DNA of 44,113 nt, from the IMG/VR virus record IMGVR_UViG_3300028422_000241; one strand, written 5' to 3'. This document shows, one piece after another, positions 4,741 through 44,113 of this stretch (its first letter is position 1; the number at the start of each line of letters is the position of its first letter). Source of the stretch: a virus. A model generated the notes under the pieces. The model searched no databases. It saw only the letters and a list, made by a program, of their open reading frames with translations, and was not told the DNA's origin. A program made the translations under genes and the position numbers.

Positions 4741-6063
4741 TTACTGAATAATTACGCTCATATAGAGCTGTGACATTGCATTGATAATGTTGAGGCCGTT
4801 AATGTTAAGCAGCACAGCTCTCTTGTTGTCACCAACCTCAACGCTTACGGTGTCTGTGTCGAAGTCCTCAACCGCACGGATGCGCTCAAGCTCCTGCACG
4901 AGTTTTACAACGTCATTCCAAAGCGTTGCACGCCCGGAGGCATCGTTAGGCACAGAGCCCACATAACGTGTATTGAAAAGCACGGCCACATCATTTGCGA
5001 TCTGGTCGCATACTCTTACAGTTTGGTTGCTCTGGAACACCTCGCCCTTTTCATCGCTAAGGGTTACAAGGCTGTTAATGTCCTCCAACACACGGACTGT
5101 GCCATTGACATTGTGCAGCATAAACTTGCCGGCTTTGATAGCCGCCTCAAGCTCAACCTGCGTATAATCAACATCCACGATCAGCTCACCGTCATAAACG
5201 GTATTTGTGAGGGACTTATTAACCGCCACACCGGCCTGTGCACCGGCTGCCCAATAAACAAGGCCGTGGGATCCAGCGGATGAAATGCTGGGGTGTGTTG
5301 CCTCATTCCATACGCCGATAACGCCCTCATAGTCTGCAGCAGCCTGCCAAGCAACAAGCTGGAATTTTGCTCCCAGATCGTCACGCACACGCTGTGCAAA
5401 ACTGGTGTACAGCGCTACCACGGAGCCATCGGATGCCGGGCAGCAAAGCGCGTTATAGGAATAGCTCTCGATCTTATCGAGGAAAGCCTGGTGATCCTCA
5501 CCGGTAATGCTTGCAGCGTTGGCGCCTGTTGTGAAAGTTGCGCCAGCTGTTACTGCAAGCACAGCATCCTTTTTGAACACCACAAAAGCGTTGTCAACAA
5601 GGTTTGATGCACCCGCAACTGTCTGCTTTTCAAGGAAAGCGCCGCCAACATAGGTGCTGACGTCAAACAGATCCTCATTGTCAATGTTTTCGGAAACAAC
5701 GATGGTAATGTCATTGCCGCGAGTGCCGGGGTGTCTTGCTGTACCATATGTGCCAGTAGCTTTTACAGCGCCGCTGCCTAAACGGTAACAAAGCACCTTT
5801 GTTGCGTGCTTGAAGATCTCACGCAGGGCAAGCAGCTCCGGGGCATCGTAGCCATAGCCGAAAATGGTTTTGCTGTTTTTCTGGAAATCGCCGAAAGTTA
5901 CCTCAAAAACGGTATCCTCCGGCCCCCAATTCAGCTCAAAGGGCGCGGCTGCAATTCCTCTGTCGGAAAGCGCTGCGCTTGCTTTGGCTAAGCTGGTAAA
6001 ATTGATATAAGTACCGGGCATTACTTTGTTTTGAGTAAGCCAAGTGCCGCCACCATGTGCCAT
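4741..6063 (-). CDS. Contractile tail sheath protein (XkdK-like)
   Basis: 440 aa. N-terminus GGGTWLTQNKVMPGTYINF is typical of the phage sheath family. Followed by the tube gene. Confidence 0.92.
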   Translation of the reverse strand: MAHGGGTWLTQNKVMPGTYINFTSLAKASAALSDRGIAAAPFELNWGPEDTVFEVTFGDFQKNSKTIFGYGYDAPELLALREIFKHATKVLCYRLGSGAVKATGTYGTARHPGTRGNDITIVVSENIDNEDLFDVSTYVGGAFLEKQTVAGASNLVDNAFVVFKKDAVLAVTAGATFTTGANAASITGEDHQAFLDKIESYSYNALCCPASDGSVVALYTSFAQRVRDDLGAKFQLVAWQAAADYEGVIGVWNEATHPSISSAGSHGLVYWAAGAQAGVAVNKSLTNTVYDGELIVDVDYTQVELEAAIKAGKFMLHNVNGTVRVLEDINSLVTLSDEKGEVFQSNQTVRVCDQIANDVAVLFNTRYVGSVPNDASGRATLWNDVVKLVQELERIRAVEDFDTDTVSVEVGDNKRAVLLNINGLNIINAMSQLYMSVIIQ

Positions 6064-13605: not shown

Positions 13606-14874
13606 TTACTCAAAACTGTAATGCGGACCGGCTGAAATTTCCTCAAGGGCGTACCGCATAGCATCCATGAGGTGGTTAAAATCATCAATGGGGCGGTTTA
13701 ACTTCCGGCCCGTTTTTGTGTCTGTGTCCCAAGTGTAATTGCTTATCTCAGTAATGAAATTAACGCACTTGGGGTGAATAAATATTTTATAGTCCTGTAT
13801 GTAGTCAATGCCGTTGTTTATGCTGTCTTTGCCTTTACGGGCTTTGCGTATGTGGGAAAGCCCCAGGGTGTAAAGCCGGTCAATGCTCTTAGGCTCGGCA
13901 CAGTCTGCCCGGATGCGCTCTTTTCCATACCCAGCATCTATAACGGCCTTGGCTATGTCCTCATTGCTCATGCCCCGTTTATAAATCTCATCAAACACCC
14001 ACATGGTTTTGTTTGCGGTGTCTACCAAGCTACAAAACAGTGCGGTGGGATCGTTGGTATATCCGAAGTCAAGCCCAAAGGCAGAACGTATGCCGGGCAT
14101 CTTGCGCACCTCGTCAATGCTGAAAAGGCGCTCCTCAAAGTTTTCATATACCAGGCCATCAACAATGCCCCACTCACCGAGCCCAGCCACGCGGTAGCGG
14201 CGTGGGTTGTTGCGCTGCATTGTGTCAAATACCTTTTTATCAGCTGCATCCAGCCACTCATTGCACATATAATTTGTGGTCATGGCCAGTATGTCCGGAT
14301 CCGGTGGGGCATCAAAAAAGCGCTTTTTAAGCCAGTGGTGCTCATTCCACGGGTTAAAGGTGAGGGTTAATTGCTTAAAAAGCCCGGCGGGCACCTCACC
14401 ACGGATGCTCTCGTCCAGGGTGTCAAAATCGGCCTCGGATGTTATCTCGTAGGCCTCCTCAATCCACAGCCAGCAAAGCACACCGACATCAACCGTGATG
14501 GAGGTTACTTTCAGCGGATCGTCAAGGCCTCTAAAATAAATCTTTTGGCCGGTTTCTATATTCTCAATCTCAAGGGGGCTTTCCTTTGCAACCCATACAC
14601 GCTGTAAACCAAGGCGGTTTATAGCCCACTTGAGCTCTGTAAAACAGCTGTCTTTTAGTGTGCGGAATGTTTTACGGATAACAAGCAAATTGGCTTTGCT
14701 GTATTTTGCTTTGCTCAAATTGCTCATGTACCACAGCGCAGCGGTTTTGCTTTTCTTAGATGCACGGCTGCCTTTGCAAACACGGTACCTGCCTTTGAAT
14801 TGCCAAAAGTCATTGTAACCGCTGCCCACAAAGTCAGACATTTTGAGCTGCAGGTTGTTAGCTGTCGAGATCAT
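13606..14874 (-). CDS. terL: Terminase large subunit (PBSX XtmB / Terminase_3-like)
   Basis: Walker A-like segment YRVCKGSRASKKSKTAA, about 420 aa, follows the small subunit gene. The start is uncertain (14874 or 14841). Confidence 0.92.
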   Translation of the reverse strand: MISTANNLQLKMSDFVGSGYNDFWQFKGRYRVCKGSRASKKSKTAALWYMSNLSKAKYSKANLLVIRKTFRTLKDSCFTELKWAINRLGLQRVWVAKESPLEIENIETGQKIYFRGLDDPLKVTSITVDVGVLCWLWIEEAYEITSEADFDTLDESIRGEVPAGLFKQLTLTFNPWNEHHWLKKRFFDAPPDPDILAMTTNYMCNEWLDAADKKVFDTMQRNNPRRYRVAGLGEWGIVDGLVYENFEERLFSIDEVRKMPGIRSAFGLDFGYTNDPTALFCSLVDTANKTMWVFDEIYKRGMSNEDIAKAVIDAGYGKERIRADCAEPKSIDRLYTLGLSHIRKARKGKDSINNGIDYIQDYKIFIHPKCVNFITEISNYTWDTDTKTGRKLNRPIDDFNHLMDAMRYALEEISAGPHYSFE

Positions 14875-15295
14875 CAATGATCACAACCTTTGTGGTACCC
14901 TCCAGGCTCACCTTATCAGTAAACAGGCCAAAGCGCTTGCCTAAAAGCTCGGCAGCCTTGAGGCGTTCCTTTTCATCGGGGGCTTTTTTCATTCGTTTAG
15001 CCTCGGAGCAGCCATCGCCGTAACCCTCAATAACAACGATCTCGGCCTCAGACTGTCCGCGCATAACCGAGGTAAGATACTCCATAACCTCCTGCGCCTC
15101 CGCAGTCTTTTGACTGCTGATCTCGGCCAGCCGTTCATCAATATAGGCCCGGACGTTAGCATTTGTTAGCAGCCTGCTGCCGTTAGCCCTTGCGGCACTT
15201 TCCTTTTTTATGTTCGGGTAGGCCGCCATATATGCCCTGGTGGCATTACAGTCAATGATGTACTCGTCTGCAAATTTCTGCTGTTTATCGGTCAT
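14858..15295 (-). CDS. terS: Terminase small subunit (Terminase_2-like)
   Basis: MTDKQQKFADEYIIDCNATRAYMAAYPNIKKESAARANGSRLLTNANV is a typical N-terminal HTH of this family. ATG 15295 follows GAGGTG. Confidence 0.85.
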   Translation of the reverse strand: MTDKQQKFADEYIIDCNATRAYMAAYPNIKKESAARANGSRLLTNANVRAYIDERLAEISSQKTAEAQEVMEYLTSVMRGQSEAEIVVIEGYGDGCSEAKRMKKAPDEKERLKAAELLGKRFGLFTDKVSLEGTTKVVIIDDLDS

Positions 15296-15319
15296 GGTTA
15301 TCACCTCGCTTTCAATCAA

Positions 15320-15361
15320 AATAAAAAGCAGACGGGAGGGGTACAAAACCCCTGCCGCTGC
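15320..15361 (-). terminator. Terminator-like hairpin in the terS leader
   Basis: Minus-strand RNA forms GCAGCGGCAGGGG-UUUUGUA-CCCCUCCCGUCUGC followed by UUUUUAUUUU. It ends about 10 nt before the terS RBS. Confidence 0.4.
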
Positions 15362-15857: not shown

Positions 15858-17236
15858 ACGGCCGCCTCCTTTGCCTTTTTAATTCTCGCTTTAAGCACAT
15901 TCATAACCGTTTCATGGGTGCCGGCACGGTCCTTGATCGCTGCCATGACATCCTCATCAACGCAGCCCTGCACCACAAGGAAATGATTATAAACCTTGTC
16001 ATAAGGTGAGCCCTGGCGCCACAGTCGGCATTTGCCCTGGTCATTAAGCTCAAAGCTCCAGTTAGGTGTAAACCAGATAATGTGTCGGCCGCCGGCTTGC
16101 AGATTAAGCCCATAGGCGCAGCTGGACGGGTGCACAAGCAGCACATCAATGTTGCCGGCGTTCCATTCGTCCTCATCCTTTGTGTCCTTGTACACACGCA
16201 CCCGCAGCTTTGTTTTAGAAAGCGCCTCAAGGATCCGGTCACGGTCATGCTGAAAACCATAAAAGGTAATGCACGGCTCGCCCTCAATGCGCTCCAGCAA
16301 CTCCATATATGCATCAAGTTTGCAGTCATGGAGGTGTACAACCTTTTTATCGTTGTCATACATAGCGCCGGCACAGAATTGTAGCAGCTTGCCGGTAAGC
16401 ACGCCCGCCGTGGCAGCGGTGACAACACCCTCATCAAGCTCAAGCAGCAGGTCCCGCTCAAATTGGTTATAGGCCTTGAGGGTTTTTTCATCAAGCATAA
16501 CCGGGATCTCATGGTCAATGCAATCCGGCAGCTCCAGGTAGTCCTCTGCTTTCATTGTAAGGCAAATATCGCTTATGGAATTAAGCACGGCCTCCTCAGC
16601 ATCCTGTTTGGGCTTGTAGCTCCATATCTGTGTGGCGTTCCTCTTGTCCGGATCAAAATACATTTGCCGGTACTGTGTAAGTGTCTTGCCCAGCCGTTGC
16701 CCCTCATCAAGTAAATACACCTGCGCCCATAAATTCTCTAAGCCCTGGGAGGATGGAGTGCCGGTAAGCAGCACAACCTTTTTGCAGAAACGCCTCACCA
16801 GTTTCATTGCCTTAAAGCGTTTACTCCGTCCATTCTTAAAGCTGGTGCTCTCGTCAAGCACCACCATATCAAACGGCCACGCCTGTTTGTAATAGTCAAC
16901 CAGCCAGGGTATGTTTTCGCGGTTAATTACATACACATCCGCTGGGGTGTTCAGCGCCCTTATGCGTTGTGTCTGGGAGCCAAGGACCGTAACAACACGG
17001 AGGTGCTTTAGGTGATCCCACTTTGAGGCCTCTTTGCTCCAGGTGCCCTCTGCAACCTTTTTGGGTGCCACAACCAAAGCCTTGCACACACTCCAACGAT
17101 AATACCGCAGTATGTTTATGGCCGAAAGCGTGATCGAGGTTTTACCAAGGCCGGGCCGTAGAAACAACCCAACCGCCGGATCCTCAACGATCCGCTGTAT
17201 GCAATAGGCCTGGTAATTATGCGGTCTATATTCCAT
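15854..17236 (-). CDS. SNF2-family helicase
   Basis: Motif I GLGKT, motif II VLDEST, and a helicase C-terminal region. ATG 17236 follows GAGGAGG. Confidence 0.9.
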   Translation of the reverse strand: MEYRPHNYQAYCIQRIVEDPAVGLFLRPGLGKTSITLSAINILRYYRWSVCKALVVAPKKVAEGTWSKEASKWDHLKHLRVVTVLGSQTQRIRALNTPADVYVINRENIPWLVDYYKQAWPFDMVVLDESTSFKNGRSKRFKAMKLVRRFCKKVVLLTGTPSSQGLENLWAQVYLLDEGQRLGKTLTQYRQMYFDPDKRNATQIWSYKPKQDAEEAVLNSISDICLTMKAEDYLELPDCIDHEIPVMLDEKTLKAYNQFERDLLLELDEGVVTAATAGVLTGKLLQFCAGAMYDNDKKVVHLHDCKLDAYMELLERIEGEPCITFYGFQHDRDRILEALSKTKLRVRVYKDTKDEDEWNAGNIDVLLVHPSSCAYGLNLQAGGRHIIWFTPNWSFELNDQGKCRLWRQGSPYDKVYNHFLVVQGCVDEDVMAAIKDRAGTHETVMNVLKARIKKAKEAAV

Positions 17237-17513
17237 CCGGCAACACCTCCTCAATTAAGGCCTTTGCGGCAGGCCACCCTTTAACAACCCTAACATCGGC
17301 CCCTCGTTTCTGCAATTCACCTCGTTGCCAAGTCTGTATTTTGGATAACCTGCCAATCTCGGTTTTTAATTCAACAAATATAACCCTGCCGGCAGGTGTA
17401 ATTATTATCCTATCCGGTACACCGGGGTTTGAGGGGCTTACAAATTTATAACATAAGCCGCCTCGCTGTTTTACCATTTGCACCATGCGGCGCTCTATAT
17501 CTTTTTCAAGCAC
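17226..17513 (-). CDS. VRR-NUC domain nuclease
   Basis: 95 aa with GVPDRIIITPAGRVIFVELKT...LSKIQ (a D..E.K core). GTG start lies 8 nt after AGGAGG. Confidence 0.85.
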   Translation of the reverse strand: MLEKDIERRMVQMVKQRGGLCYKFVSPSNPGVPDRIIITPAGRVIFVELKTEIGRLSKIQTWQRGELQKRGADVRVVKGWPAAKALIEEVLPDGI

Positions 17514-17524
17514 TATTTAAGCCT

Positions 17525-17795
17525 CCTAACATTTTCACGCGCGCGTGCGTATATGTACGCCATACAGGCGGTTAGGCAGTAATATTACTCTCTAATTGTC
17601 TAATTCTATATAATCAATAGTAATAAATGTTAGAATGTTAGAAAAGTAATAAAAGCCTTATTTTATGCGGGTTTTCGGTCTAACAATTCCTCTAACATTC
17701 TAACAATTCGGTGTTTTTCGTGTAAAAATGTTAGATTTCAGTTTCTAACATTTATACATGAAAACCGAAATGTTAGAAACGAAATGTTAGAAAAC
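17525..17795. repeat. Iteron-rich non-coding region, copy A (paralog of 33573-33822)
   Basis: Exact ATGTTAGA at 17627, 17635, 17728, 17770 and 17784. The reverse-orientation form TCTAACA(A)T occurs at 17679, 17691, 17699 and 17744, and CCTAACAT at 17525. Collinear with copy B, with long identical blocks. Confidence 0.85.
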
Positions 17796-20192
17796 TTTTC
17801 GGGTAAAACCGCGCTGTGTGCCGTGTGGGCCAAAGTACAGCGTGCTGGCTGATTTTTCCCAGCCCGGTGTTGCTGTTATAATGGCATTAAGCTCTCTGGT
17901 GTCTGTGTTTTTCATTTCTTTCACCTGTCCACCAAAAGCCTCACACCACACCTCAAGTGCACATATACGATCTCTCACAACCAGCCTAATGTCACCCTGC
18001 ACGCCGCCTGCCCAGAATATGCGGCGCTTATCAAGCGGCCACTTGCTCCAGTCCTCGGGCACCTTGCGATCCATAAACTCACGCACAACGCCCTCACGGC
18101 TGGATGCCTCGCGGTGTTCCTCCTGCTTAGCCTTGGCATCTTCCTCAATGGCCCCGGTAAGGTAAAGAGGCTCGCCGCACTGCCAGCGCATAACCGCCTC
18201 GGCCCACAGCTGATCAATTTCATTGTCAAGATCCCGCCACACGTTTTTTGCGTTCCTCTGTTCGCCGGTATCAATCGGCCAAAAGCGGCGGTTTCCGGTG
18301 GTGTCCTGCAGAAAGTCTGAGGTGTTGGTTGTTCCGAAGAATACGCAGGAGCGGGGCAGCTCTTTTACATTACGGCCGTATGCTGCGCGGAAACGATCAG
18401 CCCGGAGGCTTAAAAACTGTTTAATGCGGGCAACGTCTGTGCGCCGGAAAGCATCCAGCTCAGACACTTCAACCATCCACACGCCCTGCAGCAGCTCAGA
18501 GGCCTCTTTGCCCTCAAAGGTGCGTATGCTGTCATTAAACCAGCCACGGCTCATTTTATCTAAAAGGGTGCTTTTGCCTATGCCCTGGGGGCCGGCCAAA
18601 ATAACCATATTGTCATATTTGCAGCCCGGTGTCATTGCACGGGCAACGGCGGCTGTAAAGGCCTTACGGGTAATGGCTCTGTTATAGGCGGTGTCTTTGG
18701 CGCCGAGGTAGTCAATAAAAAGGGTGTCAAGGCGCGGCGTTCCGTCCCACTTTCCCCGCAGCCCCTTGAGGTAGTCCTGCACCTCATTGAATGAGTGGGC
18801 GTTTGAATGGAGGGAAAGGGCGGCATCAACTTTGCCGTTGCCGCTTATGCGGTAAACCTTTTCAAGGTACCAATAGAGGCCGTTATTATCGTTATCATCC
18901 CACAGCCGGCGTTTGTCCCGGCTGTCCCACGGCAAGGTGCCCAGCACCTCACCACGGCCCGCAAACTCGTTAAGGGCAAACTTGCCTTTAAGCAGGGGAT
19001 CGTGTTCCAGAATAATGCGCACGTTGTCAATGGTGCCTTTTATGGCGCCTGTCTGTTCGTTCTTTGCAAGCAAGCACATCCAATTTGCCGGATCATCCAG
19101 GTTGTCCGTGCCTATGCCGTCAAAGTCCTTTAGCGCCTCAGCATAGCGCTCCTGGCTCATAAGGGCAGACACATCCGGCAGCGCAACGGCAAGCTCGCAC
19201 ATGGCGGTGTAGGAGGGGAGGCGGTTGGTTGGCGTGCCCTGCTGTGCATCATCGTCCTTGTCACCAAACCGGTGCAGGCGCACGAGGTCAAAAGCGTTTA
19301 CGAGGCGGCCGCTGCATGGATCCGTTGAGTGGTGGCTGTATAAAAATTTGCCGTTATCATAAAGCACGGCGCCGCCGGTGGTGGATCCTCCGAGGTATGT
19401 ATATCTGCCGGGCATTGTGTCAACCGGCTCATATATACCAGGCAGGAGCTCGTCCATTGCACGGTGTATGTCATATGTGCGGCAGAAAGCGCCCACAACG
19501 CCGTTTTTGCCCTCCGGATCGCCTTGCTTTACTGCCAGCTTGGTAAATGTCTGCTGGCCGGGAATAGCGGGCCACTGCGTAACATCGTGCCAGTCTGAAT
19601 ATGTACCGAGCAGGCCATCAGCGGAAACAAAAGGCTTATCTGCAACCATGTACACATATTGACTGTCACGGCAGCAGCTGGGCCAGTACATTAAGCGGCT
19701 CACCTCAAAGGTTGTCGGATCCGCAAGCTCAAGCCCTATGTATTCGGCCATCCTGCGTATGCAGGGCTCGTATTCGTCCGCATTGACCGTGCGATCAAGC
19801 GGAAATAGCACGCGCAAACGAGGGGCAGCACTTTGATGCTTACGGGTGCTGTACACACAATACCCACAACCCAAAGCCTCTACACGCCGGAGCACATCGT
19901 CTGTGCCGCCTGCTGGGATGTTGTCAAGGTCGAGGGTGATAATGTCACGCCCGGTAACATTATTGGCCTTACGGCGTGGGCTGTTCAGAGTACCACCAAC
20001 AAAGCCGCCAATGTCCTTGAGCTCATCCTGCTGCGCCTTTTTCATATTTAGGTAATCTGCGAGGGTTTCCGTACCCCTCGCCGGTACTTTTAATTTATCC
20101 CATAACTCCGACACAAGCAGCGTTTGCGCGGTCCACAATGTGGCGCGGCGGCTGGCACCGGCAGAGATGGTTATCTTTCTATCATATTGCAT
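17787..20192 (-). CDS. Primase-helicase (VirE / P4-family, D5-like NTPase)
   Basis: 801 aa. Walker A LAGPQGIGKST lies in the C-terminal half and a primase-like region in the N-terminal half. AAGGAG RBS. Confidence 0.88.
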   Translation of the reverse strand: MQYDRKITISAGASRRATLWTAQTLLVSELWDKLKVPARGTETLADYLNMKKAQQDELKDIGGFVGGTLNSPRRKANNVTGRDIITLDLDNIPAGGTDDVLRRVEALGCGYCVYSTRKHQSAAPRLRVLFPLDRTVNADEYEPCIRRMAEYIGLELADPTTFEVSRLMYWPSCCRDSQYVYMVADKPFVSADGLLGTYSDWHDVTQWPAIPGQQTFTKLAVKQGDPEGKNGVVGAFCRTYDIHRAMDELLPGIYEPVDTMPGRYTYLGGSTTGGAVLYDNGKFLYSHHSTDPCSGRLVNAFDLVRLHRFGDKDDDAQQGTPTNRLPSYTAMCELAVALPDVSALMSQERYAEALKDFDGIGTDNLDDPANWMCLLAKNEQTGAIKGTIDNVRIILEHDPLLKGKFALNEFAGRGEVLGTLPWDSRDKRRLWDDNDNNGLYWYLEKVYRISGNGKVDAALSLHSNAHSFNEVQDYLKGLRGKWDGTPRLDTLFIDYLGAKDTAYNRAITRKAFTAAVARAMTPGCKYDNMVILAGPQGIGKSTLLDKMSRGWFNDSIRTFEGKEASELLQGVWMVEVSELDAFRRTDVARIKQFLSLRADRFRAAYGRNVKELPRSCVFFGTTNTSDFLQDTTGNRRFWPIDTGEQRNAKNVWRDLDNEIDQLWAEAVMRWQCGEPLYLTGAIEEDAKAKQEEHREASSREGVVREFMDRKVPEDWSKWPLDKRRIFWAGGVQGDIRLVVRDRICALEVWCEAFGGQVKEMKNTDTRELNAIITATPGWEKSASTLYFGPHGTQRGFTRKVF

Positions 20193-25455: not shown

Positions 25456-26175
25456 TTACATAGGTTGTCCGGTGATCGGGTTAATTCTCACACCCTGTGC
25501 GGGCTGCTGCGGATAGGTGGGAGCAGCAGGCTGTTGGGGATAAGCCGGCGCTGCAGGTTGCTGCGGGTAGCCATAGGCCGGAGCGGGCTGCTGCGGGTAG
25601 CCGTAGGCCGGAGCGGGTGCAACAGCGGTGCCCACGCCGTCAAAGTCTGTGGCAGCTGATGCGCCGCCGGAAAGAGGCTCACCGTCCCTGGTTTTCATTA
25701 CGTTGCCCAGGCCACAGCCAACGCCCTTGCTGCCGGCTGTGTCGAAAGCAAAAAAGTTAATGGTTACGCGGGCATACATACCGCTGTAAATGTCAGCCGG
25801 CAAAAGCTCACAGTTTACATTTTCAATGCTTACCACCTGCGGCTTGTTCTTTGTGGAGGCAGTCAGCACCCAGCACCCTTTGCACTCGTCACCAAACGGC
25901 AAACCGCTGGGGCGCAGTCCGTCACCGTCATGCACAATAACCTTGGGCTGGGGGTGTGCGCCGCCCCACTTTTTGCTTACGCCCTCCTCATAGGCGGCCT
26001 TAATCGAGTTGTCAATGTTGGCCTTGGTTGCCACATCGGTTTTGGGAATAAGCAGCGTAACGCTGTATTTTGGCTCGCTGCCCTGCTGTGCGGCTCTGGG
26101 GGTTGTGAGGTTGACATACGAAAGGCGAACCTCGCCGGTTAATACCTTAGTTGCAATATTCTGATACATAATCAC
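25456..26175 (-). CDS. DUF2815 SSB-like protein with a repetitive PQQPA C-terminal tail
   Basis: N-terminus LTGEVRLSYVNLTTPRA is typical of DUF2815. Positioned between the DUF2800 and PolA genes. The start is uncertain (GTG 26175 or ATG 26169). Confidence 0.75.
   Translation of the reverse strand: MIMYQNIATKVLTGEVRLSYVNLTTPRAAQQGSEPKYSVTLLIPKTDVATKANIDNSIKAAYEEGVSKKWGGAHPQPKVIVHDGDGLRPSGLPFGDECKGCWVLTASTKNKPQVVSIENVNCELLPADIYSGMYARVTINFFAFDTAGSKGVGCGLGNVMKTRDGEPLSGGASAATDFDGVGTAVAPAPAYGYPQQPAPAYGYPQQPAAPAYPQQPAAPTYPQQPAQGVRINPITGQPM
25497..25620 (-). repeat. In-frame tandem repeat encoding (A)PAYGYPQQPA units
   Basis: Two near-identical 30-nt units (25556-25585 and 25586-25615) plus degenerate upstream copies. 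Confidence 0.7.
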
Positions 26176-27770: not shown

Positions 27771-28232
27771 TTATATCTGTGCGCCGAGAGATCTGAGCTC
27801 CGTTGCAAAAACTCCGTACTGTGCGGGATCAAGTTTTGTTATGCTGTCAATGCCGTACTTGGTGAGCAGGTTGCAAAGCAGATCCATCTTGCCTGCATCT
27901 ACCAAAGCGGTGCCTGCGGTGGCGATCATTTCAAGGGTGTATGTAGGTGCCGCTGTCGGTACTGCTGCAGGTGCAGCGGTCGGAGCAGGTGTCGCACTCA
28001 AAGGTACACCAGGTGCCGCCGGTTGCTGCGGGTAGCCAACAGGTGCCGTTTGGATCGGGGCGGGAGCCGGTGCATTATTCACAGGCGGGGCGGCGGGTGG
28101 CGCGATATTCGCCGGTGTAGGGTTTGCGGGCTTGTCCGCTGGGGTTTGTCTGTTAGCGGCAAGAGCTGCCGCAAGGTTGTTGATCGCTGCTGCCAGATCG
28201 GCCGCTGTGATCGTGATGTTCATTTCTAACAT
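27771..28232 (-). CDS. Hypothetical protein with a Pro/Ala-rich linker
   Basis: ATG 28232 lies 9 nt after AAGGAGG. The linker contains VGYPQQPAAPG, also found in the DUF2815 tail. Confidence 0.55.
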   Translation of the reverse strand: MLEMNITITAADLAAAINNLAAALAANRQTPADKPANPTPANIAPPAAPPVNNAPAPAPIQTAPVGYPQQPAAPGVPLSATPAPTAAPAAVPTAAPTYTLEMIATAGTALVDAGKMDLLCNLLTKYGIDSITKLDPAQYGVFATELRSLGAQI

Positions 28233-28332
28233 TTTGGTTTGCCTCCTTGTTAAAATAATTTTTACAGTCGCATTTTTCGCCGGGATCGAGGTTTGCGCCA
28301 CAATCGGGGCAGGTGTGGTAATAAGTTTTCAT
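28153..28332 (-). CDS. Small zinc-ribbon protein (tentative)
   Basis: MKTYYHTCPDCGANLDPGEKCDC. ATGA overlap with the SLT stop. The 3' part overlaps the next gene by about 80 nt. Confidence 0.35.
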   Translation of the reverse strand: MKTYYHTCPDCGANLDPGEKCDCKNYFNKEANQNVRNEHHDHSGRSGSSDQQPCGSSCR

Positions 28333-33159: not shown

Positions 33160-33187
33160 GGTTTTTAGCTCCTTTTCTTTATATTGT

Positions 33188-33202
33188 TGTAGATATTCTA
33201 CA
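33188..33202. promoter_or_regulatory. Operator-like palindrome TGTAGA-TAT-TCTACA
   Basis: Perfect 6-3-6 inverted repeat overlapping the -10 element of the leftward promoter. An extra TGTAGA half-site lies at 33263-33268. Confidence 0.45.
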
Positions 33203-33223
33203 CCATAATAAAGAATATGTCAA
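33195..33223 (-). promoter_or_regulatory. Sigma-70-type promoter of the three-gene accessory operon
   Basis: On the minus strand: TTGACA, 17 nt spacer, TAGAAT. Confidence 0.55.
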
Positions 33224-33275
33224 TACCTTTTTTCAAAAAATAATAGAAAATCTTTATTATAATGTAGATTTACTA

Positions 33276-33304
33276 TTGCAAAGCAAAGAATGTTGTGCTA
33301 TTAT
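33276..33304 (+). promoter_or_regulatory. Promoter of the small XRE regulator gene
   Basis: TTGCAA, 17 nt spacer, TATTAT, with a TGC extended -10 element. Confidence 0.5.
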
Positions 33305-33327
33305 ATTAAACAAGGAGGTGCGTGTAT

Positions 33328-33537: not shown

Positions 33538-33575
33538 AAAAACGCCCAAGAGCCATATAAGCTCCTGGGCGTTTT
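33536..33575. terminator. Bidirectional rho-independent terminator
   Basis: A-run, then ACGCCCAAGAGC-loop-GCTCCTGGGCGT (one mismatch), then T-run. Confidence 0.6.
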
Positions 33576-33822
33576 AACATTCTCTCGCGCGCGTGCGTAT
33601 ACACGCCGTATATAGGCGGTTAGGCGGTATTCTACCCCTCTATACTGTCTATTTAACACTCTATAAGAAAAAATGTTAGAATGTTAGAAAAGTACAAAAA
33701 ACCTTGTAGCGGCTTGGGTTTGCCGCCTAACAATTCACCTAACAATTAAAGCGCGAAATGTTAGAATGTTTTTAACATTTATACATGAAAAACAAAATGT
33801 TAGATGCTAATTGTTAGAAAAA
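33573..33822. repeat. Iteron-rich non-coding region, copy B (paralog of 17525-17795)
   Basis: Exact ATGTTAGA at 33673, 33681, 33758 and 33797. ATTGTTAGA at 33810. CCTAACAATT at 33726 and 33738. Shares blocks with copy A, including cgcgcgcgtgcgtata, aggcggttaggc, aaatgttagaatgttagaaaagta and aacatttatacatgaaaa. Confidence 0.85.
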
Positions 33823-34175
33823 CCGATGGGGTTAGTTACCCCCCCCACCGGTTTATTAAAGGCATCGTTAAACTCTGCAAGGGCCGCCTCAATCAACATA
33901 CGCATCTCAAGATCTGTAATGGTGATGCCCTTTTCTGCCAACATTTCAGAGGCAGATGCAAGAGCCATGTTGAGCTTTTCCTCACCGTGCAGATCGGTGT
34001 ATATCTGCTCAACCGCCTTAACAACGATCCTGGCCACCGCCTGCTTTGTCTTGTCATTTATGTACTTGGTGTACAGCTGCTTTGCTACAACACCGAGGTA
34101 CCCGGCAAGCGCGGTGAGTACGGCATACAAAATTGTTGGGCCGTATTCGGAAATAAAAACATTCAGAAATGCCAT
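33807..34175 (-). CDS. Holin (LL-H family-like)
   Basis: 122 aa. N-terminal TM segment (GPTILYAVLTALAGYLGVV) followed by an amphipathic helical region. Adjacent to the endolysin gene. Confidence 0.75.
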   Translation of the reverse strand: MAFLNVFISEYGPTILYAVLTALAGYLGVVAKQLYTKYINDKTKQAVARIVVKAVEQIYTDLHGEEKLNMALASASEMLAEKGITITDLEMRMLIEAALAEFNDAFNKPVGGVTNPIGFSNN

Positions 34176-37289: not shown

Positions 37290-37460
37290 AAAACCCCTCC
37301 TAAATATCGTCTGGTTGAGCACAAGGGCTTTCGGTTTGCTCTACTAACCCCAGGAGCAGCCTTGTTATGCTGCCCCTCCTTGCGGTGCCGGTTCAAGCTC
37401 AATTTTTGGGTTATTAGCCCAAGGAATGTACTGCGTAATAAATTAAATATCTTACCAGAT

Positions 37461-37565
37461 GCGCGGGCGCCGATGTTCCAGTTAGCATTGGCGAGGCCAT
37501 TGTTCAAATTAGCACAAGCCAGGCCGCTGTTGCCGGCATTGTTCAGATTACCGAAAGCCTGCCAC
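37461..37565 (-). repeat. DGR template repeat (TR)
   Basis: 105 bp, non-coding. In the VR frame it reads WQAFGNLNNAGNSGLACANLNNGLANANWNIGARA, with 10 AAY codons. Confidence 0.92.
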
Positions 37566-37652: not shown

Positions 37653-39410
37653 TTCACCCCGATTGCCACCGGAGCCACACGCGCGGGCGCCGATGCCCCA
37701 GTAAGCACTGGCGAGGCCACCGCCCAAATCAGCACAAGCCAGGCCGCTGAGGCCGGCATCGGCCAGAGAACCGAAAGCCAGCCACTCACGCCAGCCAATG
37801 GTATTTTGCGCATCGCGGTATGTAGCGCACCGGTAGCCGGTTGTTGAGCTGCCGGCAAGCAGGGTGGGTATCATGTATTTTTCTTGACTGTTAGCACTCC
37901 AGCTAAGCTCCGCATTATATGCCCAGGCGGCTGTTTCCTCTTTGGGGATAGTGCCGAGGGTAACGGGGCTGGTGCCGGCATTAGCGCTTGCAATGTGGGC
38001 GGCTCTGCGGTTAGCATAAACCGTATAGCCGTTTACGGCATCCTCATAAAGTGTGGTGTCTGCCGGTATCTCGTACATACCAAGCATAACCTCAATGCCC
38101 TGCAGCTTAAACGGCTCTTTGCCGCTGGTGTTGTTTGTCGGGCTGCCATCGTTGCCCTGTACCTCGTCTGTGGCGCCTGTAAGCCACGGCTGAGGGTTAA
38201 TAGCGGTAACACCAACAACCGTGTTAAAAGTGCCCTCTATGGCTAAATTAACGGCCTTATAGGCGGTGCTTTCAATGGTGACATCCTCAATGCTTGCAAT
38301 GGTTGCAATGTCGCATACATCGTAACAGGTGGCTTTGGATCTGTCTGTTTCGGTTCCGAGTGATACCCGGCTGCCGACAACAAAGAAAGCAGCCTGCGGA
38401 GCAGTTAAGAGTATACGTTTTACACCGGTTTCCGACACGGCAGCCGTGTAAGAGGTGTAATAAGAACGGCAGCCGCTCATTTTGGTTGCGTTTCCGAGGT
38501 CCGCATATTTGATCTCAAGCATAAGCTGTAAAAATGCAATGTCACAGAGGGAGGATCCACAATACTGATTGCCCCACTCACGCCACTTTGCAATTTGCCC
38601 ATCATGGCTGATCGAGGTTGATCCTACCGATCCGGTTCTCAAGGTTGCGGGCTGTACACCGGAAATGCTGGACAGCTTGCCGGCTGTGTTATAACCGGCG
38701 GCATACTTTGCATGAATGACAAAGCCGCGCACGGAATTGTCAGCAGCTCTCACGGCCTCCGGTAAGGGCTCAAAACCCTCTGTTTCCTGCGCCCTGTATT
38801 CAACCTTTTTGGTTGTTTCGGTTGTGGTGCGGCGTACCCATCCGGTCATTTGCATAACACCCACAAGGCTGCTTGCAGGCGTTGCAGAAAACGTGCCATA
38901 AACGCCTTTTATCGCCGTAATAACAGGCTCGAGGGTATCAGCATCAATGGTATAGTTGACGTCATGCACCATGAACAGCGTGAGGCTTGCGTAATCGTCT
39001 GTACCGGGTGCGGCAATGGTGCCGGGGGTGCAGGTGAGTGTCGCATTATCATCCTGTTTTGTACCAAGAGGGCTGTTGCTGGTTGCATACTTGTAAAACT
39101 CTGTTGTATAGGTTTCATTGATTGTTTTAGCGGCCGCCTTGTAAAAGCGGTCGGCAATGTCTGCGAGGCTGCTGTCCTTGCTTGCCGCATTTGCCTGCAC
39201 AAACATCTTAAACGCCTCTTTAGCCCCGTATTTTTCAATCAATATGGGGACTATAAAAAGATCGTTTGTGTCATTCGCACGCACGCTGCCCAGGGGTAAA
39301 CGGTAGAGCGCCATCAGCCCGTTTGTATCGGGCTGCACGCCCAGCACATACGCCTGCTCACTCACTTCATCGGGGATCGGCTTTTCAATTACAGAAACAG
39401 TGTTTGCCAT
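37638..39410 (-). CDS. DGR target protein: tail-module (putative receptor-binding) protein with a C-terminal variable region
   Basis: 590 aa, AAGGAGG RBS. The VR lies 13 codons before the C-terminus, ending ...WLAFGSLADAGLSGLACADLGGGLASAYWGIGARACGSGGNRGEYTAA. Located downstream of the tail fibre gene. Confidence 0.85.
   Translation of the reverse strand: MANTVSVIEKPIPDEVSEQAYVLGVQPDTNGLMALYRLPLGSVRANDTNDLFIVPILIEKYGAKEAFKMFVQANAASKDSSLADIADRFYKAAAKTINETYTTEFYKYATSNSPLGTKQDDNATLTCTPGTIAAPGTDDYASLTLFMVHDVNYTIDADTLEPVITAIKGVYGTFSATPASSLVGVMQMTGWVRRTTTETTKKVEYRAQETEGFEPLPEAVRAADNSVRGFVIHAKYAAGYNTAGKLSSISGVQPATLRTGSVGSTSISHDGQIAKWREWGNQYCGSSLCDIAFLQLMLEIKYADLGNATKMSGCRSYYTSYTAAVSETGVKRILLTAPQAAFFVVGSRVSLGTETDRSKATCYDVCDIATIASIEDVTIESTAYKAVNLAIEGTFNTVVGVTAINPQPWLTGATDEVQGNDGSPTNNTSGKEPFKLQGIEVMLGMYEIPADTTLYEDAVNGYTVYANRRAAHIASANAGTSPVTLGTIPKEETAAWAYNAELSWSANSQEKYMIPTLLAGSSTTGYRCATYRDAQNTIGWREWLAFGSLADAGLSGLACADLGGGLASAYWGIGARACGSGGNRGEYTAA
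37681..37785 (-). repeat. DGR variable repeat (VR)
   Basis: 105 bp. It differs from the TR at 17 positions, all of them TR adenines on the coding strand. Confidence 0.92.
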
Positions 39411-43772: not shown

Positions 43773-44113
43773 CCCTCAATTTTAACTCCATGAGGTGCTG
43801 CCCATCCTTAAAACTGTGCTTAACCTGTTCCACCATTAAGAAGTTTGAAAGGTTAATATCACCCAGCCCGAGTATGACAACCAGCATTGTGCCGGCACGC
43901 ACTCTCGTATCACCAAGGGCGTTTTTAATGCTCAAAGTGCGTGTTTTTGCATTGTACAATTTAAGCAAAGCATCTGCCATGGTTTTTGCGTTGGTCGCAT
44001 CGTCCAGCTTTTCAAAATACTGCAGCACGCCCCATTTGCTTATATTGGATCCGTCCTGTGCAATGAACACCTGGCGGGTTCCGGCATCACTGTCCTCATA
44101 TGTGAGTTTAATT
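43753..44113 (-). CDS. XkdQ-like tail/baseplate protein, C-terminal part (same gene as 1-749; 43970-44113 duplicates 1-144)
   Basis: The frame is open from the window end to the stop at 43753 and in frame with 1-749 across the junction. Confidence 0.75.
   Translation of the reverse strand, partial: IKLTYEDSDAGTRQVFIAQDGSNISKWGVLQYFEKLDDATNAKTMADALLKLYNAKTRTLSIKNALGDTRVRAGTMLVVILGLGDINLSNFLMVEQVKHSFKDGQHLMELKLRGGKFVT
43970..44113. repeat. Terminal overlap, identical to 1-144
   Basis: Verbatim 144-nt match with the start of the window. Confidence 0.97.

Follow-up and report, generated by a model that had tools for sequence, protein, structure and literature searches.

The Rep proteins of Staphylococcus aureus pathogenicity islands (SaPIs) are self-loading initiator-helicases, which bind and melt their origins without ATP (PMC9371898). 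Their C-terminal winged helix recognises iterons located directly downstream of the rep gene, and in the origins an AT-rich centre is flanked on both sides by two or more iterons, which face in opposite directions (PMC9371898). We analysed IMG/VR virus record IMGVR_UViG_3300028422_000241, a 44,113-nt stretch of phage DNA (hereafter, the window), in which two intergenic regions, copy A (17514–17795) and copy B (33573–33822), are packed with the 8-mer ATGTTAGA. The comparisons described here suggest that A and B are probably iteron-type replication-origin copies recognised by the phage's own primase-helicase, with B as a second binding locus. Copy A is very probably a SaPI-type Rep origin located in a complete phage, and for copy B we lean slightly towards a second origin or a Rep-bound barrier.

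Three phage systems offer further points of comparison. In the satellite phage P4, the alpha primase-helicase binds both the origin and a distant cis replication region, crr, which is required for replication; the primase domain of alpha is of a different type from the AEP (archaeo-eukaryotic primase)-like domain encoded in the window. The work on alpha, ori and crr was reportedly published by Flensburg and Calendar in 1987, Ziegelin et al. in 1993 and 1995, and Yeo et al. in 2002. The phage-encoded resistance (PER) elements known from lactococcal and Streptococcus thermophilus phages are cloned phage origins, which are short, rich in repeats and non-coding; an extra copy of such an origin interferes with phage replication in trans, and the Sfi21-type origin is located just downstream of a putative primase gene. 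The primary reference on PER is among those cited by PMC3445015. We know of no natural second origin copy inside a phage genome in the PER literature.

Phage SPP1, which has a 44-kb genome, possesses two similarly organised origins, composed of repeats and an AT-rich unwinding element and located ~13 kb apart (PMC6316719; PMC3485210). Its oriR is found next to moron genes, in a non-coding island within the late region, and has been proposed to be a protein-bound barrier, at which the stalled first fork gives way to concatemer replication; an exonuclease, a junction resolvase and proteins for annealing and single-strand binding would assist in this change (PMC6316719; PMC3485210).

Two paralogous iteron regions in one phage genome

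The window represents a complete, circularly closed phage genome of ~43,969 bp, as positions 1–144 are identical to positions 43970–44113. The phage is temperate, and nearly all of its genes are located on the minus strand. This one-strand orientation dominates the GC skew, so that the skew, suggested in an earlier note on this DNA as a check for an origin, is uninformative. No tRNAs were found. A megablast search against the GenBank phages returned almost nothing, and a search at the protein level was required.

The 8-mer ATGTTAGA occurs 12 times in the genome, as compared to 0.92 ± 0.93 expected from 100 dinucleotide-preserving shuffles, among which the maximum was 4 and none (0/100) reached 12. 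Eleven of the 12 copies are located within the two intergenic regions, 16 kb apart. Exact copies lie at 17627, 17635, 17728, 17770, 17784, 33673, 33681, 33758 and 33797 on the plus strand, and at 17691 and 17744, plus a stray one at 28225, on the minus strand. Variant iterons are present in both regions (TCTAACAAT at 17679 and 17699 and CCTAACAT at 17525 in copy A; CCTAACAAT at 33726 and 33738 and ATTGTTAGA at 33810 in copy B). When the looser core CTAACAW was considered, 17 of the 27 genomic sites fell in the two regions, which make up 1.2% of the genome, and ten of them are located within 17526–17790 of copy A. The earlier note had listed these motif positions, with a single copy of the 8-mer, at 28225, outside both regions; all of the positions were confirmed, and the enrichment withstood the shuffling.

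The two regions are collinear direct repeats, with three blocks that are 76–87% identical at offsets of 16027–16048. Their MAFFT alignment has a mean column identity of 81% over 342 columns and 72% over the trimmed core; block comparison and alignment thus agree with the previous description of directly oriented copies about 16 kb apart. The gap of A (17514–17786; 273 nt, 68% A+T) and that of B (33538–33806; 269 nt, 61% A+T) are the two longest intergenic gaps of the genome and are among the most AT-rich long ones. They had been called the two longest AT-rich intergenic regions, which holds for their length; in composition, the 162-nt gap at 33160–33321, with 75% A+T, exceeds both copies.

Read in the direction of transcription, copy A and its downstream gene are organised as follows.

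17514–17795, minus strand: copy A, a complete origin-type element between the primase-helicase stop and the VRR-NUC start
17770–17791, minus strand: two direct iterons (TCTAACAT on the minus strand), the first of which overlaps the primase-helicase stop codon
17679–17751, unstranded: middle cluster of five iterons in mixed orientation (17744–17751, 17728–17735, 17699–17707, 17691–17698 and 17679–17687)
17627–17642, minus strand: tandem iteron pair at the edge of the AT-rich region, the most conserved part of the element
17580–17626, unstranded: AT-rich stretch with TTAGAG-type short repeats and a short palindrome, a block conserved across all iteron types
17566–17577, unstranded: AGGCGGTTAGGC block, read from the sequence
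17536–17559, unstranded: perfectly alternating purine-pyrimidine tract of 24 nt, CACGCGCGCGTGCGTATATGTACG, read from the sequence
17525–17532, plus strand: single far-side iteron CCTAACAT, which faces the AT-rich region and lies beside the VRR-NUC ribosome-binding site
17226–17513, minus strand: VRR-NUC endonuclease gene, directly downstream of A

The last iteron of A in positional order overlaps the primase-helicase stop codon (17787–17789), and at the other end A terminates at the AGGAGG ribosome-binding site and the GTG start of the VRR-NUC gene. The AT-rich stretch at 17580–17626 is a candidate DNA-unwinding element, and the 60-nt segment with the highest A+T content in A (83%) surrounds the tandem pair. 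The alternating tract and the AGGCGGTTAGGC block are conserved whatever the iteron type. A 22-mer containing the tandem pair recurs in 12 viral contigs and 8 genome contigs; the metagenome-assembled genomes with this exact 22-mer are labelled as uncultured Clostridiales, Oscillospiraceae, Ruminococcaceae and Ruminococcus.

Copy B contains every block of A, in the order and orientation of A.

33573–33822, minus strand: copy B, the paralogous origin-type element, from the holin stop to the late terminator
33726–33818, unstranded: iterons other than the tandem pair (33810–33818, 33797–33804, 33758–33765, 33738–33746 and 33726–33734), several of them variant or degenerate
33673–33688, minus strand: tandem iteron pair, which together with its flanks forms a 25-nt stretch invariant in ten diverse B copies
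33629–33672, unstranded: AT-rich stretch
33614–33625, unstranded: AGGCGGTTAGGC
33586–33605, unstranded: alternating purine-pyrimidine tract
33539–33575, unstranded: strong bidirectional intrinsic terminator with a 16-bp stem, directly after B
33807–34175, minus strand: holin gene, the stop of which abuts B

The holin stop codon (33807–33809) is 1 nt away from the last iteron of B. The contacts of A with the primase-helicase stop and the VRR-NUC ribosome-binding site, and that of B with the holin stop, had been recognised in the earlier note. Since B lies between the holin stop and the terminator, it forms the 3′ untranslated end of the late (lysis) transcript. Past the terminator are a convergent gene for a 71-aa XRE-type helix-turn-helix (HTH) protein, four small unknown genes and a serine integrase gene. 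In promoter and terminator scans of both regions, the promoter matches were non-homologous between A and B, and the sole solid signal was the terminator after B.

The stray iteron lies on the minus strand within a 22-nt segment (28219–28240), in which 20 of 22 nt are those of the iteron plus flanks at 17762–17783, in inverted orientation. It overlaps the ATG start of the gene at 27771–28232 (AAGGAGG, 8 nt, then ATGTTAGAAATG). This isolated iteron might be a regulatory Rep site, although its membership in the system is uncertain. No counterpart was found in the other lineages, whose extra 7-mer matches are ordinary coding-sequence matches.

The primase-helicase and the lineage-specific iterons

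The gene that ends at copy A encodes a primase-helicase with three domains.

17787–20192, minus strand: primase-helicase of 801 aa, with an AEP-like N-terminal domain, a VapE/SF3 (superfamily 3) helicase domain and a C-terminal winged-helix domain
17790–18179, minus strand: coding region of the C-terminal domain (residues 672–801), with the recognition helix at 762–774 and the wing motif G-P-H-G-T-Q-R-G-F

The protein matches the Pfam VapE-like domain (E 1e-79) and PHROG 256, ‘DNA helicase’, with the PHROG label ‘DNA primase’ also given, while NCBIfam gave no match. Residues 369–727 match PDB 7PDS, SaPI1 Rep1, with an E value of 9.6e-74 (phmmer against the PDB). The 7PDS entry is the SaPI1 Rep1–DNA complex (PMC9371898). 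The model of the N-terminal 370 residues has low confidence, with a predicted local distance difference test (pLDDT) score of 63, and its best matches are weak ones to AEP-type primases (S-2L PrimPol, E 1e-3; RepB′), in agreement with the ‘DNA primase’ label. The AlphaFold model of the last 130 residues has a pLDDT of 82, rising to ~90 over fragment residues 30–130, and folds into a three-helix, helix-turn-helix arrangement plus a β-hairpin wing, which is a winged helix. In a Foldseek search with this model, the only significant matches were six chains of 7PDS (E 3e-6 to 1.5e-4, TM 0.59–0.66); the non-significant ones include several winged-helix or helix-turn-helix DNA-binding domains. In the model, the candidate specificity position, T792, opens the second strand of the wing.

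To characterise the element in relatives, we collected about 113 to 238 relatives of the primase-helicase from IMG/VR and built a profile of the origin element from 19 diverse examples. This profile finds the element directly after the primase-helicase gene in 132 cases, and in the window it matches both copy A (17794–17468, E 2e-47) and copy B (33819–33584, E 5e-30). The ~330 nt past the stop codons of the relatives have one shared order of parts: two or three direct iterons, next three to six inverted ones and a short GC-flanked spacer; then a tandem direct pair, ~100 nt of AT-rich sequence with TTAGAG-type repeats, and the CCGCCT block with the alternating CG/TA tract; and finally one or two inverted iterons, followed by the VRR-NUC ribosome-binding site. 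In most relatives, the AT-rich block is thus flanked by the tandem pair on one side and by an inverted pair on the other.

Within this order, the iteron itself differs by lineage. It is CTAACAT in the phage of the window, and GGAACAT, GTAACAT (with or without GCAACAT), GTTACAT, GTAACAA, CCTACAA, GTAACCG, TCTTACA, ATTACA or GTTACTT in the others. Cultured relatives, whose proteins are 43–44% identical, also have an iteron cluster, in the 340–360-nt gap from a virE-type gene to the VRR-NUC gene, with eight copies of TGATGCAACA in Staphylococcus phage tp310-2 and with TGGGTACAATGGGAAC in Clostridium phage phiCT453A. As the repeats vary by lineage in a constant architecture, they are better explained by a phage-encoded sequence-specific binder than by host promoter elements.

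The iterons co-vary with the C-terminal domain of the primase-helicase. Between iteron types, the last ~70 residues are the most divergent part of the protein, with an identity of 0.42–0.51 as compared to 0.81–0.87 within a type. Near the C-terminus, the wing motif G-x-x-G-X-Q-R-G-F tracks the iteron in 70/70 loci, as follows.

Wing K: iteron GGAACAT (34 loci, 9 distinct C-terminal domains)
Wing A: iteron GTAACAT or GCAACAT
Wing V: iteron GTAACAT
Wing L: iteron GTTACAT
Wing PHGT: iteron CTAACAT
Wing PYG[IV]V: iteron GTAACAA
Wing KS: iteron CCTACAA

The pairing is broadly followed by 22 further loci. Changes of a single base in the iteron go together with changes of one wing residue (K, A, V or L), which makes these loci a natural specificity series.

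The type switches are independent of phylogeny, as they occur at scattered places in the tree of the protein body. In five sister pairs of loci, with an identity of 90–97% across the first 730 columns of the alignment, the two members belong to different types (L017/L028, L024/L025, L013/L030, L074/L037 and L032/L042). Between L017 and L028, the nucleotide identity is 95–100% upstream of −600 and 93–100% downstream of +350, with the VRR-NUC and SNF2 genes 100% identical, and it dips to 59–90% solely over the coding end (approximately the last 200 residues) plus the iterons. The same dip is repeated in three more pairs. Since the identity falls only across this cassette, the specificity determinant lies inside it. 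Judged from the identity profiles, the exchange unit is the coding end of the C-terminal domain together with the iterons. Such a cassette replacement, at about −600 to +350 round the primase-helicase stop, was observed in L017/L028, L024/L025, L013/L030 and L032/L042.

The primase-helicase itself is most likely the iteron binder, with recognition by its C-terminal winged helix suggested by the co-variation. The earlier note had named it as a candidate for this role, and the co-varying winged helix, the cassette exchange and the homology to SaPI1 Rep1 together lend the proposal strong in silico support. The likeness to the SaPIs extends over protein and origin: the helicase core is homologous to that of the SaPI Reps (E 1e-73), the fold of the C-terminal winged helix is shared, and in both cases element-specific iterons lie directly downstream of the gene, with oppositely oriented iterons flanking an AT-rich region. 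The ten CTAACAW sites of copy A also lie within the range of 6–12 iterons that characterises the stretch behind the rep reading frame. In SaPI5, PriRep5 has a primase fused to Rep, as in the phage of the window. On the other hand, SaPIs are satellites, whereas the window is a complete temperate phage, and the iterons are 5–6 bp in SaPIs and 7–8 bp here. The elements described here have ~10 sites, in extra upstream clusters, as well as the CCGCCT and alternating CG/TA blocks, and none of these blocks is described for SaPIs (PMC9371898). The second dispersed copy is a further difference.

The P4 system, with which the earlier note had compared the two regions, is a more distant parallel. In P4, one polypeptide combines a primase, an SF3 helicase and a C-terminal winged-helix origin-binding domain, and octamer iterons are present at two separated loci of one genome; both features resemble the window. 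However, no chain of P4 alpha was found by the sequence search of the PDB (E ≤ 1), and the 50 best fold matches for the C-terminal domain include no entry from P4. Furthermore, crr is required in P4 whereas B is dispensable in most relatives, and B is a full origin copy rather than iterons only. The comparison with P4 may thus be taken as an analogy only: a replication locus is favoured, as the earlier note had suggested, but the family appears to be that of SaPI-type Rep and ori.

In the mechanism that we propose for copy A, the primase-helicase would act as a SaPI-Rep-like self-loading initiator-helicase, the C-terminal winged helix of which would read the ~7–8-bp iteron (T)CTAACAT. The protein would occupy the iteron clusters of A, above all the tandem pair on one side of the ~100-bp AT-rich stretch and the oppositely oriented site on the other, melt this stretch and load itself as a hexameric helicase. 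Priming could be performed by the N-terminal AEP-type domain, after which the family-A DNA polymerase and the gp2.5-like single-strand-binding protein would take over.

Several further arrangements were observed among the relatives. An alternating purine-pyrimidine tract of 20–24 nt (CGCGCG...TATA..., often palindromic) lies beside a CCGCCT(A/G) repeat in all iteron lineages; it may form Z-DNA or a cruciform, or serve as a priming site. In L182 (5216–6698) and L150, the gap between the primase-helicase and VRR-NUC genes has expanded to ~1.5 kb and includes parts of the origin element in duplicate. Origin-type elements that are complete and carry GGAACAT iterons are present inside the tail module of other phages (L131, 4816–5140; L134, 7726–8050; L143, L241, L137 and L206), where they sit after a 264-aa gene, which is SAM-synthetase-like by eye only, and before a small gene preceding the next tail genes. 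These phages have no detectable protein in common with the window within ~10 kb. The L131/L134-type contigs were not among the Rep loci returned, which does not establish a matching K-type Rep in them.

Copy B and the weighing of alternatives

Copies A and B occur together in eight further contigs, which include prophages within bacterial contigs of 164–298 kb.

Contigs with both copies, IMGVR: 3300001528_000065; 3300010263_000153; 3300010327_000143
Contigs with both copies, others: Ga0134096_1000003; Ga0134105_1000422; ERZ773147.21; OMCE01000002.1; ERZ808267.80

The window and these eight contigs fall into three lineages in which the iterons match; in a fourth one, those of B do not. Within a genome, A and B are 68–78% identical, as compared to 77–81% among A copies and 68–73% among B copies; these figures imply that B is old or repeatedly homogenised, and evolves faster than A. 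When ten diverse B copies were aligned, the tandem pair and its flanks, CTTTTCTAACATTCTAACATTTTTT, were invariant, and a terminator follows each copy. The slot of B is constant, between the holin stop and the terminator, and the holins of the B-bearing lineages are only 63–83% identical. The invariant core amid decayed iterons points to selection on Rep-type sites rather than neutral drift. In one defective prophage (L282, in the 298-kb contig Ga0134096_1000003; also L265), the region from mid-terminase to mid-endolysin is lost and the end of the SNF2 gene is altered; the L282 prophage keeps both origin copies (449–731 and 5533–5770), only 5 kb apart.

A number of observations weigh against A and B as two origin copies served by one initiator. 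In both copies of the window, two iterons are present on one side of the AT-rich stretch and a single recognisable iteron on the far side, where most relatives have two. L411 and L408 share an identical wing motif, AKYMGPYGTQRGF, yet have the iterons TCTAACA and TCTTACA, respectively; the wing code is clearly not the whole story, and other residues of the protein contribute to specificity. In the ten-copy alignment of B, several upstream iterons have decayed. B is missing downstream of many related holins, where the holin gene leads straight to the terminator or to the next gene. No second cluster was found within ±10 kb of the primase-helicase gene in the other iteron lineages, although for the GGAACATT lineage the tandem scan covered the matches listed only and does not establish the absence of a second copy; nor was one found across the whole genomes of tp310-2 and phiCT453A. 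Finally, in IMGVR_UViG_3300018493_000159, the primase-helicase (wing ...KYMGPYGAQRGF) is followed by an origin with xTTACA iterons (L401, 12388–12720), whereas the B after the holin (L101, 7516–7715) has CTAACAT and is non-cognate to this protein, with its wing ...YMGPYGAQRGF. Binding, melting, origin firing and any role of B are inferred on a purely comparative basis; the anatomy, the conservation, the homology and the protein–iteron co-variation come directly from the computations.

Given that B is patchy among the relatives, it cannot be a general requirement. The duplicated architecture, the conservation of which had been raised as a check, recurs in the eight contigs and is absent from most relatives; since most relatives and the cultured phages have a single copy, and one lineage has a non-cognate B, the term bipartite, with both copies needed, is weakened. 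Together with the patchiness, the non-cognate B implies that B moves along with the late/lysis module and does not in every case fit the resident initiator.

For the role of B in the window, the closest functional precedent is SPP1, as an analogy and not as a homologue; P4, with ori and crr, is the other precedent. SPP1 and the phage of the window both have a 44-kb genome and a two-origin architecture with a spacing of 13–16 kb, and in both the second copy occupies a non-coding island of the late region near moron genes, although the binding of both copies by a single protein is here a prediction. Like SPP1, the phage of the window encodes an exonuclease, a gp2.5-like annealing/single-strand-binding protein and a nuclease, VRR-NUC, which would fit a model of fork stalling and restart. 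In contrast, SPP1 uses a separate origin-binding protein, gp38, with a loader, a DnaB-type helicase and the host replisome, and its oriL is located inside gene 38. B would most likely be a second binding locus of the primase-helicase, kept at the end of the late operon, and could act as a secondary origin. Alternatively, it could be a protein-bound roadblock like SPP1 oriR, at which the first fork would stall and replication would switch from the circle-to-circle to the concatemer-producing mode.

The same features of B bear on two other explanations, which leave A as the origin. An unlikely one is that B is a functionless passenger, a decaying duplicated origin fragment that travels with the lysis/moron end by modular recombination. 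Its patchy presence among the holin relatives, the lack of a second copy in the cultured relatives, the non-cognate lineage, the degenerate iterons and the faster divergence of B (68–73% among B copies, against 77–81% among A copies) would all fit such a passenger; yet the full block order is kept in at least four lineages with holins only 63–83% identical, the 25-nt tandem-iteron core is invariant in ten diverse copies that diverge by ~30% elsewhere, and the slot between holin stop and terminator is always the same. Distinctly unlikely is a B directed, as a decoy or a hitch-hiking origin, at the initiators of co-infecting CTAACAT-type phages, which would titrate the superinfecting Rep or be fired by it, as in the PER systems, or amplify the end of the resident prophage. 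B is cognate to the resident Rep in three of the four lineages, which would set it against the origin that the phage itself uses; one copy on a chromosome titrates poorly; and there is no experimental hint of such an effect. The extra copies of PER are artificial and carried on plasmids; the second copy here is natural and lies in the genome. What speaks for a decoy is the CTAACAT-type B next to a resident xTTACA origin in IMGVR_UViG_3300018493_000159, the moron/immunity-proximal slot at the end of the late operon, and the GGAACAT elements in the tail modules of phages with no detectable shared protein. A broader version, in which B would be a portable origin cassette acting in trans on initiators, as a trap, decoy or hitch-hiking origin for the CTAACAT-type Reps of competitors, or else a programmed fork barrier for the concatemer switch, is a speculative idea to which we give little weight. 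If the trans-acting cassette were true, the non-cognate B and the tail-module elements would be signs of inter-phage conflict or piracy via replication origins.

The remaining alternatives dispense with replication altogether. The earlier note had considered binding sites of a phage HTH regulator, and it is very improbable that the iterons are operators or activator sites of a transcription regulator, such as the 71-aa XRE HTH protein beside B, or parts of phage promoters. Although TGTTAGAAT resembles an extended −10 element, promoter-like matches occur in both regions and the HTH gene adjoins B, these matches differ in strand between A and B and do not fall at homologous positions, and the same architecture elsewhere uses iterons that are not promoter-like, GGAACAT and CCTACAA among others. 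The HTH gene is inconsistently linked to B and never to A, and the specificity swaps are confined to the cassette of Rep C-terminal domain and iterons. Structured RNAs or packaging (pac) signals, the latter also raised in the earlier note, are so improbable that we regard them as hardly credible. Both regions fold well (z = −6.9 and −6.2) and are transcribed as operon parts; the folding stems from the inverted iterons, the predicted structures differ between A and B, and no Rfam family reached threshold in searches at gathering and permissive thresholds. As for pac, the small terminase gene (14858–15346) is >2 kb from A and ~18 kb from B. In both cases, the lineage-specific changes of the repeats, which track a DNA-binding domain, favour the reading of the iterons as sites of the primase-helicase.

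Genomic surroundings and significance

The replication module around copy A comprises, upstream of the primase-helicase and according to the annotation, an exonuclease, a gp2.5-like single-strand-binding/annealing protein, a family-A DNA polymerase and methyltransferases. Downstream, the VRR-NUC gene is followed by a SNF2 helicase gene and then by the terminase genes, small and large. As annotated, the module consists of the exonuclease, the gp2.5-like protein, PolA, the VapE primase-helicase, VRR-NUC and SNF2; neither a DnaB-type helicase nor a loader was seen among the genes with an annotation. Two further sets of repeats were observed in the window: ~30-nt tandem repeats (GCTGCGGGTAGCC...) at 25494–25612, within the 3′ portion of the gene for the gp2.5-like single-strand-binding protein, and a related third copy at 28018–28047; and a 111-nt direct repeat, 83% identical, at 37455–37565 and 37675–37785 (spaced 220 nt), inside overlapping late (tail-region) reading frames.

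Taken together, the window probably represents a temperate phage of gut Clostridia with a dual-copy SaPI-like origin, in which the A-type origin would be of a known kind and the extra late copy is unusual. This reading provides a testable assignment of origin and initiator for a very large and mostly uncultured family of gut Firmicutes phages, as well as for tp310-2 and phiCT453A. In annotation, AT-rich ‘intergenic repeats’ of this type would be read as origins, and not as regulatory RNAs or CRISPR-like arrays. The natural specificity series could be used to study or re-engineer initiator recognition by winged helices. The conserved second copy would make this a rare natural dual-origin phage outside SPP1 and P4, and the mismatched B hints that phages might trade or weaponise origins among themselves.

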